Virus record (IMG/VR): IMGVR_UViG_3300028405_000014
Location: 1 to 29,655 of that record
Reading direction: 5' to 3' (one strand)
DNA length: 29,655 nucleotides
Source of the DNA: a virus
Lineage: Duplodnaviria > Caudoviricetes
This document shows positions 1 through 20,170 of the stretch, one piece after another. Both the position numbers and the translations under genes were made by a program. The notes beneath the pieces were generated by a model that had not been told where the DNA came from, did no database searches, and saw only the letters and a list, made by a program, of their open reading frames with translations. Each line of letters begins with the position of its first letter. The first letter of the stretch is position 1.

Positions 1-45
1 CTCGCCTGTTGTATGTTGGTAGTATTTGCCGATTTGGAATTTCAT
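1..45 (-). CDS. 5' part of a probable cassette ORF running off the window (MKFQIGKYYQHTTGE...)
   Basis: ATG at 45 follows the attC-like site at 67-129 and the frame is open to the window edge. Manual translation; GKYYQH resembles the N-terminus of small SH3-like DUF1653-type phage proteins (weak). Confidence 0.5.
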   Translation of the reverse strand, partial: MKFQIGKYYQHTTGE

Positions 46-66
46 AGTTTTCGTTAGCGTTAGAGG

Positions 67-129
67 TGAGAACCAGTCAGCTCTCACAATTCGTTCGTGC
101 CTCACTTGTGGCAGTGCTCCACGTTCTAA
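67..129 (-). mobile_element. attC-like recombination site (imperfect hairpin), site B
   Basis: Minus strand TTAGAAC-GTGG-AGCACTGCCACAA-GTGAGGCACGAACGAA-TTGTGAGAGCT-GACTG-GTTCTCA. Terminal AGAAC/GTTCT boxes, inner arms AGC/GCT, CT/AG and CACAA/TTGTG with bulges, 63 bp. The stop codon of the upstream ORF lies inside the first box. Confidence 0.65.
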
Positions 130-260
130 TTTAGGGCGATTGATAGTATGATCGCTATTAGATAGGCCAAGATCATAAACCATCCTGTGACTTCCTTCTT
201 TAGTGTGGTTGCGATTGCGAACGCCCATGCGCCCGCTAGAATTATTTCTGTTTTTTCCAT
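126..260 (-). CDS. 44-aa two-helix membrane peptide, cassette-borne
   Basis: Manual translation MEKTEIILAGAWAFAIATTLKKEVTGWFMILAYLIAIILSIALN*. Two hydrophobic stretches; the TAG overlaps the TTAGAAC box of the downstream site. Below the ORF-track cutoff. Confidence 0.65.
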   Translation of the reverse strand: MEKTEIILAGAWAFAIATTLKKEVTGWFMILAYLIAIILSIALN

Positions 261-293
261 TATTTTTATTTGGTTGATTTAGTGTTTGTCGAA

Positions 294-347
294 TTAGAAC
301 CATGCGATTGTAGCAACGGAAGACCGCGCTACATCTTCGCGTTCTGT
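294..347 (-). mobile_element. attC-like recombination site (imperfect hairpin), site A
   Basis: Minus strand ACAGAAC-GCGAAGA-TGTAGC-GCGGTCTTCCGTT-GCTACA-ATCGCATG-GTTCTAA. AGAAC/GTTCT ends, GCGA/TCGC, TGTAGC/GCTACA and CGG/CCG arms, 54 bp. Same end architecture as 67-129 but a different interior. Confidence 0.65.
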
Positions 348-361
348 AAATAACATAAACT

Positions 362-868
362 TTATCGTTTTTTAAAAATTCCCAACGCTCCGACTTGATC
401 AATCTTATTCATAAAATTTTCGATCCAGTGGTAATTAGTTCTTTGCGGTGTATAATCATGTAGAAATACAATACCATCATTTTTCAATTTGTCAAGACCT
501 TTTTCAATACAAAATATTCTCGCCCTGCCATCAGCGAAGAAAACGTCAAAATGTTCATTTTCGAAGCTCTCAATAAAATTTATGTAATCCCTAAACTCTT
601 CTGCCTTTGTGGGTTTTGTTCGCGGTTTGTTGTTTTTAACAAGATGAAGGCGGCAATTTGTTTGTTTGTTTTTTTCTTTAGTTTTCAGATACCAACCCTC
701 ATTATGTTCTAGGGAATCATAGCTTTTACAATATTTGGGAAATCTAAGGGTGCTCGTTCCCATACCCCACTCAAATACAGTCGGGTTATTTTTTTTCATG
801 TATGCTTCAATGTAATCGACTTCTATTTTTTGTAAACCGCCAGCATAATCTTCTTTGTTTTTTGCCAT
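362..868 (-). CDS. class I SAM-dependent methyltransferase
   Basis: Motif I VFEWGMGTST, acidic SLEH, FDVFFADGRAR, LKNDGIVFLHD. The likely start is the ATG at 868, just after the upstream stop; the ORF track extends to 901. Confidence 0.8.
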   Translation of the reverse strand: MAKNKEDYAGGLQKIEVDYIEAYMKKNNPTVFEWGMGTSTLRFPKYCKSYDSLEHNEGWYLKTKEKNKQTNCRLHLVKNNKPRTKPTKAEEFRDYINFIESFENEHFDVFFADGRARIFCIEKGLDKLKNDGIVFLHDYTPQRTNYHWIENFMNKIDQVGALGIFKKR

Positions 869-869
869 T

Positions 870-1340
870 TTATTGTTTTTTAAATTTTCGTGCAGATTCA
901 ATTAAATTTTTTAAAAATAATGTCGGAACTTCTATTTCAATTCCGTCTTTGCATTTATCATAAGTAAGAATTTTTTGTTCTTTTTGGCAGGGATCAGATT
1001 TTCTTAGGATTTTAATATAATCGTCGTCATTTAATTTTTCTTCTACACCCCATAATCTTAAATTACTTTCATTGATTGGTTCTCCGCATTCGTGAGAAAA
1101 ACCAATAAAAACATCTGTGTAATTGCCCATTTCATAAGTTCCGCCTTTATAGCCATAAAATGAAGATCCATTTGCTAATTTAGCTTGTTTTAACATTTCT
1201 TTTATTGTTGTCTCTTTGACTGGATCAAAAGCGAGATTTTCATAAAAACCTCTATCACAATGCGGCTCTCCGAATCCATTTTGCACAATTGTATTTTCGT
1301 CTTGGCTTTCGAGCCATTCTATTAGTCTTTTTAGTATCAT
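870..1340 (-). CDS. hypothetical phage protein
   Basis: 156-aa ORF with an ATGA overlap to the upstream gene; GFGEPHCDRGFYENLAF and YGYKGGTYEM look like conserved phage-protein motifs. Confidence 0.7.
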   Translation of the reverse strand: MILKRLIEWLESQDENTIVQNGFGEPHCDRGFYENLAFDPVKETTIKEMLKQAKLANGSSFYGYKGGTYEMGNYTDVFIGFSHECGEPINESNLRLWGVEEKLNDDDYIKILRKSDPCQKEQKILTYDKCKDGIEIEVPTLFLKNLIESARKFKKQ

Positions 1341-2557
1341 AATTTAAAAAATATATTTTGTAATTCTGCTTGTGAGATTGGAAAAGAAAGTTTTTCAACC
1401 CTATCTTTATCTTTTACTCCGAAAAAATCTGCCATTTCAAGAGCTAATTTTTTATCAGCGTATTTTAATTCTTTCTTTACGTCAAATCTTCCGTCTCTTA
1501 TTAAAGCTGGATCTAAATTTTCGTAATAATTTGTTGTGGCAAAAATAACTGTTCCATCAGGCAAATCGTCACCATCCAATAAAGAAAGAAGGCTCTGCAA
1601 GCTAATAGAGGAGCTATTATCGGATTTCAATTTGTTTTTTGTTTCTTCTCTTTTTTCTGTTGCGCTCAAAATATCAATATCTTCAAAAACGATAAAAACA
1701 TTTTCTGCCAAATCAAACAATAGGTTTTTTAGTTCTTTAATACCATCGATTTCGCTCAAATTAAAATAATAAAGCCTTTTATTATAGTAATTAGCCAAAG
1801 CTTTTATAAAACTTGTTTTACCAGTTCCCGGTTTACCGTAAAATAGATAGCCCCTTTTATAATTGAAAGAATGGTCCTTGTATTTATTTTCCTCAGAAAA
1901 GAAACAATCTAGGTCTTCTAATACCTCTTTTTTTACATTGTTATTTAAAAATATTGAATTTATCTTTCTATTATTTTCTTTTTTGATTTTTCTAAAGTAA
2001 TCATAATCATGAATATAGATTCTATTTTCTTTGTTTGTTTCTTTGAAATTTTCTTCTATAGTGTTGTATAGGTCATTAAGTTCATTTTGATTGCGGCAAA
2101 AGAACTTAATGACTATATATTCTTTTCTTTCAATCATGTTTTCCGCGTTTTCCAAGTTGCAAGAAATTGACAAAAATCCATTTCTAGAAAAAGAATAATG
2201 GGTTCCGTAATTAATTGTTTTCGAAAAAGAACTTCCGTTGGAAGATTTTTTTGCTTTACCAGTTCTTGGGGGCGAGTATGGGTTATCGTCTACTTGTTCA
2301 GATGGCCTTTTTCTAACAAGTTTTATTCTTTTTGTTTGCCCCTCTGTTTTTTTTGAAACCCAATCAGAAACAAAATTGTAAAGTTCTGTATCACTGTTGT
2401 TTACTCTAATCGTATAAATTAGATGTGTATTCACCAAAGAGCTTATTTTTGCTGGCAAATTTCTCAATAAATACAAAGCAGAAGTAAAAATAGCAATACT
2501 TATGCCACCAGAAAAAAACTGGTTTGTTTGGAACTCGTTTATTATCCACTCAATCAT
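1337..2557 (-). CDS. BCS1-like membrane-anchored AAA+ ATPase
   Basis: N-terminal TM segment NQFFSGGISIAIFTSALYLL; YKRGYLFYGKPGTGKTS (Walker A), FEDID (Walker B), TTN sensor, LDPALIRDGRFD (second region of homology). Confidence 0.85.
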   Translation of the reverse strand: MIEWIINEFQTNQFFSGGISIAIFTSALYLLRNLPAKISSLVNTHLIYTIRVNNSDTELYNFVSDWVSKKTEGQTKRIKLVRKRPSEQVDDNPYSPPRTGKAKKSSNGSSFSKTINYGTHYSFSRNGFLSISCNLENAENMIERKEYIVIKFFCRNQNELNDLYNTIEENFKETNKENRIYIHDYDYFRKIKKENNRKINSIFLNNNVKKEVLEDLDCFFSEENKYKDHSFNYKRGYLFYGKPGTGKTSFIKALANYYNKRLYYFNLSEIDGIKELKNLLFDLAENVFIVFEDIDILSATEKREETKNKLKSDNSSSISLQSLLSLLDGDDLPDGTVIFATTNYYENLDPALIRDGRFDVKKELKYADKKLALEMADFFGVKDKDRVEKLSFPISQAELQNIFFKL

Positions 2558-2718
2558 TTCTTTATATTGTCTATACTAATTTGCGTAACATAGTGACCGT
2601 TCCGACTTGTCATTTCACAAAGGTATTCATCTGCGCCAAGGTAAGACTTGATTACGCCTTTTGTTCCGCCGTTGGTTGTAATCTTGGTTCCTTTTTCTAG
2701 CTTTTTATTTTTAGTCAT
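2554..2718 (-). CDS. 54-aa small beta-barrel protein (YajC cytoplasmic domain / SH3-like)
   Basis: Manual translation MTKNKKLEKGTKITTNGGTKGVIKSYLGADEYLCEMTSRNGHYVTQISIDNIKK*. Its TGA overlaps the ATPase ATG (ATGA). Confidence 0.65.
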   Translation of the reverse strand: MTKNKKLEKGTKITTNGGTKGVIKSYLGADEYLCEMTSRNGHYVTQISIDNIKK

Positions 2719-2849
2719 TTTATTATAGTGATTCGTAGGTTAATTGTGATATTTCTTTTTTTTGGTTTTTTTATTTCGTTTTTATGGGCAATTATTTTTA
2801 ATCTTTTTTCTTCGTGTGTAAACACCTTCACCGCAATCTGCAAAACTTA

Positions 2850-3410
2850 TCATAAAATTCCCAAACCATTTATTTTAGTAGAAATATAATCTTTGTCTAA
2901 TTCTTTTGTCCATTTTAAGAAAAGCAATTCATCCGCTTCTCTTCGCAAATCATTTTCACAACGTATTTCTTCATTAATTACTGGCAAAATTGGTTCGCTA
3001 TTTTCTATTCTTACGATATGAAATGATAATACCTCGGAAAATACTTTTTGTTCTCTAATAAAATTTTTAATATACGCTTTTTCTCCAGTTCTTCCGCCAA
3101 ATCGGAAATCAGTAATTAGATAATTTTTTTTAACATCATAGGCGTTTATAAATTTTTCAACCCAATATTTGCCTTGCGTTTCGTTTCTTTTCCCACAGCC
3201 GTATTCTATCAATTCATCTCTGAATAAATGTTTTTGTTGGTCATCCCAAACAGATACGCCATATTTTTGTTCAATTGTTTCCTCTAACTCTTTTTTTAAT
3301 TCTTTTGCAAAAGCAAATCGCTCGAAGTTATATTGGGGGTATTTTTCTAGTATTATGTCCGCAACAGTATCTTTTCCAGATCTTGCTGGACCGCTAAGTA
3401 ATAAAATCAT
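2850..3410 (-). CDS. deoxynucleoside monophosphate kinase-like P-loop protein
   Basis: LSGPARSGKDT P-loop, FAFAKELK, R..L..YG, ITDFRF motifs typical of phage dNMP kinases. Confidence 0.8.
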   Translation of the reverse strand: MILLLSGPARSGKDTVADIILEKYPQYNFERFAFAKELKKELEETIEQKYGVSVWDDQQKHLFRDELIEYGCGKRNETQGKYWVEKFINAYDVKKNYLITDFRFGGRTGEKAYIKNFIREQKVFSEVLSFHIVRIENSEPILPVINEEIRCENDLRREADELLFLKWTKELDKDYISTKINGLGIL

Positions 3411-3416
3411 TCCGCA

Positions 3417-3444
3417 ATAATGAGATTTTTCAGAGAAATGTCAA
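3417..3444 (-). promoter_or_regulatory. host sigma70-like promoter, probably leaderless
   Basis: TTGACA-N16-CATTAT ending 6 nt before the ATG at 3410. Confidence 0.55.
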
Positions 3445-3563
3445 GCAATTAATAAAATTTTAGTGATTCTTTTGCCCAAAGCGGAGCATTCTCTATGTTA
3501 GCCATAATAGTTATGTTCCGTCAATAATTGATGGGTCGTATTTTGCTGGTGTTTTCATTGATT

Positions 3564-3704
3564 TTATTTTTTTATTATTGATGATTGCAAATTGGGAACT
3601 TTTTTTGGTATATTTATTTCTCCTTTGGGTGAATACCCGCCTCTTCGCTCTTTTATTTTGATATCGCAAAGAGCAAAAATAATTATGAATAATATTATAT
3701 ACAT
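3564..3704 (-). CDS. 46-aa small protein with hydrophobic N-terminus
   Basis: Manual translation MYIILFIIIFALCDIKIKERRGGYSPKGEINIPKKVPNLQSSIIKK*. Co-oriented with its neighbours. Confidence 0.4.
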   Translation of the reverse strand: MYIILFIIIFALCDIKIKERRGGYSPKGEINIPKKVPNLQSSIIKK

Positions 3705-3853
3705 TATTAACTAATTAAGTGTTTTATCTATTATAGATAAACATTTTTTTCGAGTTTCTGAATGGAGGTTTATTTTTTTCAAAATTATTTTGAAACCATT
3801 CCCATTTTCCAAGAGATTCAGGCCATCTAGTTGAACTTTATAGGCTTGGAGAA

Positions 3854-4087
3854 TCATACTAATTTGTAATAGAAATATTCACCAACATTAACACTCTTAC
3901 CTTTCATTCTACTAAAGCTAGAGTTTCCTGATGATATAATTTCCCTACCTGTATATTTAATATTTATTACTTCTTCGTTATCCGTAGAATTAACACCATT
4001 AATATTCATAAACCATGAACAAGGAAGTCCATCTGCCAAAGGTTGGTTTGGATTTTTTTCTTTTGATTCGCTATTATTTTCGACCAT
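3854..4087 (-). CDS. hypothetical protein
   Basis: 77-aa ORF directly downstream of a TTGACT promoter-like element; no recognisable motif. Confidence 0.4.
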   Translation of the reverse strand: MVENNSESKEKNPNQPLADGLPCSWFMNINGVNSTDNEEVINIKYTGREIISSGNSSFSRMKGKSVNVGEYFYYKLV

Positions 4088-4097
4088 GATTCATCCA

Positions 4098-4125
4098 ATA
4101 AGATATTTTTTATTGGGAAAGTCAA
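4098..4125 (-). promoter_or_regulatory. host sigma70-like promoter
   Basis: GCTTGACT-N16-TCTTAT. Shares GCTTGAC and an identically placed TTATTG with the 3417-3444 promoter. Confidence 0.45.
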
Positions 4126-4133
4126 GCAAAAAA

Positions 4134-4346
4134 TTATTTTTTTCTCGATAATCTTTTGATTTCTAAATCCAGTATATCAATAATAGGCTTCAAATTATTA
4201 GAAATAAAAAACTCACTGGGTCTTCTATTTTTTAATTTTTTGTTGGATTTACCCAACCATTCGACTACTACATAGGGGCTAGTTTCTTCGCAAAGCTTAT
4301 TGAGTATATCCATTTTTTTATAATAGCTTTTATTTTCCATTATCAT
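4134..4346 (-). CDS. stand-alone Xre/MbcA/ParS C-terminal (toxin-binding, DUF2384-like) domain protein
   Basis: WLGKSNKKLKNRRPSEFF...IIDILD fits the WLxxPNxxLxGxxPxELL pattern. Real start may be the ATG at 4340. Confidence 0.55.
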   Translation of the reverse strand: MIMENKSYYKKMDILNKLCEETSPYVVVEWLGKSNKKLKNRRPSEFFISNNLKPIIDILDLEIKRLSRKK

Positions 4347-4348
4347 TG

Positions 4349-4386
4349 TTTACACAAAAATTCTGTTTTTTAAATTAAAGTGTAAA
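4349..4386. promoter_or_regulatory. divergent pair of GTGTAAA phage promoter motifs at the strand switch
   Basis: TTTACAC at 4349-4355 (GTGTAAA on minus, 8 nt before the ATG at 4340) and GTGTAAA at 4380-4386 (9 nt before the phoH ATG). Confidence 0.7.
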
Positions 4387-16157: not shown

Positions 16158-16178
16158 GCTAAAAAACAAAACATTTAC

Positions 16179-16206
16179 AAACCCGCCTATTAAGGCGGGT
16201 TTTTTT
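16179..16206 (+). terminator. rho-independent terminator
   Basis: AAACCCGCCT-ATTA-AGGCGGGTTT followed by a T-run. Confidence 0.9.
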
Positions 16207-16226
16207 ATCTCTAATAAACCGAAAAA

Positions 16227-20067: not shown

Positions 20068-20101
20068 TTAACACCAAATTGGGGAAAATAGCCACAACTT
20101 T

Positions 20102-20131
20102 AAAACCCTGCTCAAAAGGCGGGGTTTTTTT
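20102..20131 (+). terminator. rho-independent terminator
   Basis: AAAACCCTGC-TCAAAAG-GCGGGGTTTT followed by a T-run. Confidence 0.85.
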
Positions 20132-20170
20132 GTGTATTTTATTTAAATTCTTTTTATTTATAGTAAACTA

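Follow-up and report, generated by a model that had tools for sequence, protein, structure and literature searches.

The window, by which we mean the whole 29,655-bp stretch of DNA analyzed here, is an entire IMG/VR virus record, so no extension to the left was possible within its own record. It is estimated to be 21% of the phage genome. Its phage genes encode a large terminase, a tape-measure protein, PhoH, a BCS1-like AAA ATPase, and a nucleotide kinase, and those in positions 1 to 4350 are on the minus strand. No tRNA or tmRNA was found in the window, and no phage GenBank record matched positions 1 to 3000. Rfam gave no match in positions 1 to 360 and four at chance level in positions 1 to 1500 (E values of 2.8 to 9). 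The features at the left end of the window, together with the insertions and deletions found in related phages, are listed in Table 1. The left end is rich in GC. Positions 1 to 360 have 42.2% GC, as the earlier note had estimated (about 42%), although the whole window has 32.2% rather than the roughly 30% assumed there. Only 7 of 587 frames of 343 nt were as GC rich as positions 1 to 343.

Table 1. Features at the left end of the window and indels among related phages
Feature	Position	Strand	Description
Type B island, part in the window	1-341	minus	Cut off by the contig end
Second cargo ORF, 5' part	1-45	minus	MKFQIGKYYQHTTGE...; ATG at 45-43, 15 codons, runs off the contig
Site 2	69-127		AGAAC...GTTCT ends in common with the hairpin at 296-345; two small stem-loops on the minus strand
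Probable 44-aa cargo gene	126-260	minus	Predicted small membrane protein, two hydrophobic stretches
AT-rich leader, hairpin to cargo ATG	261-295	minus	35 nt, 100% identical in both island types
Hairpin (site 1)	296-345	both	5-bp foot AGAAC/GTTCT plus 4-bp, 6-bp, and 3-bp stems between bulges; 4-nt loop
TTCT (AGAA on the minus strand)	342-345		4 nt present at both island junctions, once in the empty site
Spacer after stop codon of upstream gene	346-361	minus	Conserved in all three states
Conserved upstream gene, anchor for relatives	362-901	minus	179 aa as listed
Indel, island			3,074 bp; 51% GC; repeat AGAA (4 nt)
Indel H1	L008:5925-6873; window 4024-4028		949 bp; 40% GC; repeat ACTTC (5 nt)
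Indel H3	L008:15031-15327		297 bp, AT rich; 28% GC; imperfect repeat of about 13-14 nt
Indel H4	L006:13124-14466		1,343 bp; 45% GC; repeat of about 3 nt

Small co-oriented ORFs had been said to alternate with two hairpin sites, and the ORF list confirms two on the minus strand (126-260 and the one with its ATG at 45-43). For the first, one homologue was found elsewhere, which is also 44 aa long, with 35 of the 44 residues identical (80%) and 40 similar. At this level of identity, the ORF is probably a real gene, and its predicted product is a small hydrophobic protein. The protein matched no Pfam or PHROG family. When it was aligned with its homologue and the alignment was used as a query, viral contigs gave no match. 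The same alignment had three weak hydrophobic matches in genomes (45 to 64% over 21 to 38 residues), which we judged to be noise. We also considered a 134-aa frame (1-402, minus strand) that is open through both sites and overlaps the end of the 362-901 gene. Its arginine- and asparagine-rich, junk-like translation led us to judge it spurious. It matched no Pfam or PHROG family and is broken in relatives with the type A island described below. Therefore, it is probably not a gene. The stop codon of each ORF had been placed in the first box of the site that follows. This is correct for the TAG at 126-128, which is within the TTAGAAC of site 2, but the TAA at 362-364 is 16 nt outside the box of site 1.

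The hairpin at 296-345 is real. Folded as RNA, it has a predicted stability of -22.1 kcal/mol on the minus strand (z = -3.86) and -20.0 kcal/mol on the plus strand (z = -3.79), and none of 200 shuffled sequences was equally stable on either strand. Folded as DNA, its z scores were -2.72 and -3.34. It ranks second in stability among the 56-nt folds of the window, on either strand. Site 2 gave two separate small stem-loops when folded as minus-strand RNA (z = -1.65; 15 of 200 shuffles as good). As plus-strand RNA, it had a z score of +0.45, with 126 of 200 shuffles as good, and as DNA, its z scores were -0.68 and -0.03. Therefore, of the two imperfect hairpins that had been described from the sequence (294-347 and 67-129), the first beats all shuffles but the second does not form a single hairpin and folds no better than shuffles.

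A sequence check bore out the claim that the two sites have the same ends. On the minus strand, both start with AGAACG and finish with TGGTTCT, which makes 13 terminal nucleotides in common. Against an expectation of 0.88, the window has three occurrences of AGAAC-N35-65-GTTCT, a count that 5 of 100 shuffles reached. We also asked post hoc how often any 5-mer inverted pair occurs twice. Among simulated sequences of 360 nt, 46 of 1,500 had such a repeated pair, as did 57 of 163 real frames of that length from the AT-rich window. With three further matching bases, the shared ends of sites 1 and 2 are suggestive but not compelling.

Intrinsic termination was considered for the 296-345 hairpin and rejected. 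The native terminators of this phage, at 16160-16215 and 20080-20135 in the structural gene block, have GC stems flanked by A and T runs. A T run is missing after the stem of the hairpin, which is thus not of this type and was not called in a terminator scan. That scan returned one terminator-like site, on the plus strand at 107-123, within site 2. On the coding (minus) strand of positions 1 to 361, there was neither a consensus promoter nor a T-run terminator, and a promoter scan of the minus strand of 258-361 made no sigma-70-like call. The 23-nt core of the hairpin was absent from other IMG/VR contigs and from 185,579 species genomes. A second copy of the whole hairpin-leader module was not found in the window or in the related contigs L005, L006, L008, and L009, where the best other match was 13 nt (E = 0.59). 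Neither the module nor site 2 recurred in the window, in the related loci, or in about 50 unrelated viral loci. Elsewhere in the window, a near-perfect hairpin of about 23 bp (2065-2120, plus strand; -21.4 kcal/mol at 29% GC) sits within the coding sequence of the BCS1-like AAA ATPase (1337-2557, minus strand).

Relatives of the phage were found via the 362-901 anchor gene and then lined up on its end. This gene is 99% identical in two viral loci and five metagenome loci (two of the latter are the same contigs as the two viral loci), and the flanks are 99.1 to 99.8% identical among contigs. The seven loci and the window share this site, which has three states: an empty site, a type A island, and a type B island. 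The empty site is represented by two loci from one contig (L002, the same as L006). There, the flanking genes are joined directly, and the sequence ...TATTTACAGAA|AGAGTAAAAAAC... leads directly into the conserved gene that follows. The type A island is represented by three loci from two contigs (L003, the same as L008, and L009). After ACAGAA, these contigs have the hairpin and leader of the window, followed by an island that ends with ...AATAAAGAA|AGAGTAAAAAAC. Type B comprises the window and L007, which have the hairpin and leader and then, from the ATG on, sequence unrelated to type A.

The hairpin, the 35-nt leader, and the ATG (258-341 of the window) are all that types A and B have in common. 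They align over 168 nt (99.4% identity), with the single mismatch directly behind the ATG, and nothing significant was found to match beyond it. The part specific to type B, positions 1 to 253, has 44.7% GC. A 49-kb contig (L005) terminates precisely at this ATG, the point of divergence between A and B, as would be expected of an assembler where two variants coexist. Logan contigs, which are independent assemblies of public lake-water runs, confirm both types: X1, X2, and the shorter X3 pieces have type B, and an X4 contig has type A. Run X4 also has contigs of about 100 kb. (X1 and X2 may be the source samples of the window itself.) The X2 and X3 contigs extend 267 nt past base 1 of the window, and we infer a total length of only about 0.6 kb for the type B island. 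The start of the X2 contig coincides exactly with a different indel junction, at window position 4028.

The type A island spans 3,074 bp with 51% GC and has nine co-oriented ORFs, including genes for a phage-type DNA methyltransferase (phrog_757, E = 2e-61), a DUF551 protein, and a phrog_1229 protein. Its first gene was found within IMG/VR only in the source contig and had six protein relatives in a large protein collection. Relatives of the methyltransferase were found in 49 viral loci, with up to 77% identity outside the source contig. In the 48 loci other than the source contig, no other island protein had a match at an E value of ≤1e-3. The type A island is thus itself a mosaic. The right-flank gene, used as a query, retrieved only the two known contigs, and no outgroup phage was found. 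Relatives thus differ by presence or absence at this locus (empty, A, or B), in agreement with the proposal that it holds an exchangeable block of accessory genes. In positions 1 to 341, the window contains the upstream portion of an accessory-gene island that varies among strains of an uncultured lake phage and is flanked by two of its conserved genes.

The junctions can be read to the base. The empty site reads ...TTTACAGAA|AGAG..., and the filled form reads ...TTTACAGAA|CGCG... at one end and ...AATAAAGAA|AGAG... at the other. At the hairpin foot, the filled form has one AGAA more than the empty form; if one mismatch is allowed, the repeat is 7 nt long (TAcAGAA/TAaAGAA). On the plus strand of the window, the left junction is CGCG|TTCT|GTAAAT, in the 3' foot of the hairpin. 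A breakpoint at this position fits the G|TT crossover that the earlier note had predicted for changes in gene content, which genuinely counts in favor of the note. Types A and B part at the ATG (258-260), and the right junction has no site. The last 141 nt of the right end of the type A island formed no hairpin (z = -1.6 and +0.4), and its junction window does not fold at all. The AGAA junction is also just what a deletion between short direct repeats classically leaves behind.

The contigs share about 15 kb, in which there are four indel sites, the island included (Table 1), and the extra segments have 28 to 51% GC versus 32% for the phage. H1, H3, and H4 have short-repeat junctions without a hairpin. 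When the eight junction windows were folded, one came near the top of its shuffles, the left end of the island (z = -2.44; 3 of 200 as good). The next best had a z score of -2.04, and the other six ranged from -0.59 to +1.42. Repeats that vary in length across several sites argue for illegitimate recombination or slippage and against one site-specific enzyme with a fixed core.

Some other observations concern these variable sites. Window position 4024-4028 is a second indel hot spot. The H1 segment, in L008, includes a fragment of a D12-class adenine methyltransferase. At about the same position, the near-identical phage of L006 contains an IS607-type element (L006:5077-6928), in which the gene for a serine recombinase of 189 aa (Resolvase domain, E = 1.8e-14) precedes that for a TnpB-like protein of 429 aa (Cas12f1-like TNB domain, E = 1.2e-9). 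This element is part of a segment of ~2 kb that is missing from the window and L008. The H4 segment of L006 has three opposite-strand ORFs of no known family, and it removes the last codons of a small phage gene. Downstream of the island, L003:11355-12535 has three successive small ORFs with similar C termini (...FLEKIQSYREL, ...FLEYILAYQQL, and ...EFVYDMREY...), which suggests a tandem paralogous family. One of these ORFs is truncated in L006 by the 1,343-bp segment.

The reading that we favor, and whose chances we put at about even, is that foreign phage DNA was acquired, that its cargo was replaced, that deletion occurred at short repeats, and that the hairpin acts on RNA, with no part played by attC recombination. 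The island DNA would have come from other, GC-richer phages, and a second recombination event would have swapped the cargo behind the shared leader. The empty form would have arisen by a putative deletion between the two AGAA (TAcAGAA/TAaAGAA) repeats. The hairpin, located after the stop codon of the upstream gene and before the start codon of the cargo, would likely act on the transcript, as an attenuator, a processing site, or a stabilizing stem-loop that insulates the cargo from the upstream operon. So stable a hairpin may also have favored breakage or slippage at its own foot. One point against this reading is that, if breakpoints fell purely at random, the exact match of one with the foot of the strongest intergenic hairpin would be a coincidence. 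(Only one of the eight junctions has its breakpoint at a hairpin foot.) The fit of this breakpoint to the predicted G|TT crossover and the 13 terminal nucleotides common to sites 1 and 2 also speak against it. In addition, the presence of two cargos behind a 100% identical hairpin-leader module suggests recombination targeted to the module.

Targeting of this kind is at the center of an alternative that we regard as unlikely but worth weighing, in which the locus resembles the PeSL (promoter-early stem-loop) cassettes of T4-type phages. The stop codon, stem-loop, AT-rich leader, and start codon would together be a conserved regulatory unit (a terminator or attenuator, perhaps with a promoter). 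The unit would also serve as a patch of homology through which ORFan cargos are swapped in, swapped out, or excised as circles, a role that we consider similarly doubtful. The module is an intergenic unit with a stem-loop and an AT-rich stretch, and its exact limits are the stop codon of the upstream gene and the ATG of the cargo. Two unrelated cargos are preceded by 100% identical copies of it, and the indel directly adjoins it. For T4-type phages, such a motif has been described next to 10 of 14 differential ORFans, with recombination proposed to occur in its AT-rich part (PMC2839356). PeSL cassettes of these phages are reportedly also treated in PMC4122927. However, PeSLs are a dispersed repeat family with a sigma-70 promoter, whereas the lake phage module is single copy in the sequence examined (no second copy at an E value below 0.5 in the window, L005, L006, L008, or L009), with no such promoter called on the minus strand of 258-361. 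The stem also has no T run after it, and the H1, H3, and H4 indels have no module. Finally, the empty-site junction is at the foot of the stem and not in a second copy of the module.

The earlier note had proposed an integron-like cassette array. In this reading, the hairpin is a noncanonical attC-type site, defined by its structure, and some recombinase whose gene lies elsewhere, in the host or the phage, placed a cassette there at G|TTCT. If this were true, the locus would be an example of integron-like, or other single-strand hairpin-guided, capture in which AGAAC/GTTCT boxes replace the classical R boxes. We consider it very unlikely. The consensus of the attC R'' box is RYYYAAC. Here, the boxes are TTAGAAC/GTTCTGT on the plus strand and ACAGAAC/GTTCTAA on the minus strand, which match RYYYAAC/GTTRRRY only in AAC/GTT. 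The R' box is given as 5'-G|TTRRRY-3' in a study of virulent phages, which documents attC clusters without an integrase and reports that, of six sites assayed, five underwent recombination with IntI1 at G|TTRRRY (PMC9892861). With such clusters already described in that study, the integron idea is not new in kind. Several features of the lake phage locus are as expected of phage attC clusters (CALINs): an imperfect hairpin that ends in AAC...GTT, a breakpoint that fits G|TT at its 3' box (CGCG|TTCT|GTAAAT), AGAACG/TGGTTCT ends that recur on site 2, sites that alternate with small co-oriented ORFs, and a DNA methyltransferase in the cargo, a class also noted in phage-borne attC clusters.

Even so, the locus fails most of the defining features of phage attC clusters. 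Only one site folds, since site 2 does not do so above chance, and the many genes of the type A island are siteless. A scan of this nine-ORF, 3,074-bp island for AGAAC-N30-90-GTTCT found no further site; the AGAAC...GTTCT matches outside the island in L005 and L008 fall in conserved phage sequence. The boundary between island types is the ATG of the first cargo gene, where cargo is exchanged, and not a box. The other end of the island is without a hairpin, and junctions of the same short-repeat type also occur at indels that have none. The 23-mer from the hairpin was found nowhere else in IMG/VR or the 185,579 genomes. A search for IntI-like recombinases in the phage found no PF00589 protein, and no PF01797 protein either, in any of the three contig fragments searched, which are only 16 to 21% complete. 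Together, the nonconsensus boxes, the ATG boundary, the hairpin-less far end, and the absence of a tyrosine recombinase from these fragments argue against an integron-like mechanism.

The locus has some likeness to an IS200/IS605-type element. Elements of this type have hairpins at both ends and a Y1 transposase. Here, there is a subterminal hairpin beside a short, target-like tetranucleotide, with no terminal inverted repeats. However, the other end of the island is without a hairpin, no PF01797 Y1 transposase is encoded in any of the three fragments, and there are no other copies of the hairpin in IMG/VR or the 185,579 genomes.

That the assembler simply joined a GC-richer foreign left end to a phage contig is hardly credible: the window contig does end within the island, and contigs do break at variable junctions, but the type B junction is also present in L007, in an X3 contig piece spanning 231-620, and in the X1 and X2 contigs (possibly the sources of the window), and type A has phage sequence on both sides within single contigs.

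Among known kinds of locus, the best fit is most likely a moron or ORFan island of the variable regions of phages, in line with our favored reading of acquisition, cargo replacement, and deletion at short repeats. The moron concept is reportedly that of Hendrix and co-workers. Like a moron, the island separates two genes that directly adjoin each other in a close relative (L002/L006), and its composition deviates from that of the phage (43 to 45% GC in the type B part and 51% in type A, versus 32%). Its cargo consists of small ORFs of unknown function and a methyltransferase, and a block of this kind can be lost spontaneously. For cyanophage S-PM2, one report describes the deletion of an "ORFanage," a spontaneous loss of such a block (PMC4503421). 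The lake phage island differs in that one of its ends is the foot of a strong hairpin and two cargos lie under an identical hairpin-leader head.

The locus is a clean natural example of the turnover of accessory genes in uncultured lake phages. One intergenic site has three alleles with base-exact junctions, in several lake-water metagenomes, among phages that differ by less than 1% elsewhere. If it is just an ordinary variable region, its interest is modest. It would matter more if the breakpoint at the hairpin foot and the shared hairpin-leader head mark a targeted exchange, which could be PeSL-like outside the T4 group or integron-like with new boxes.
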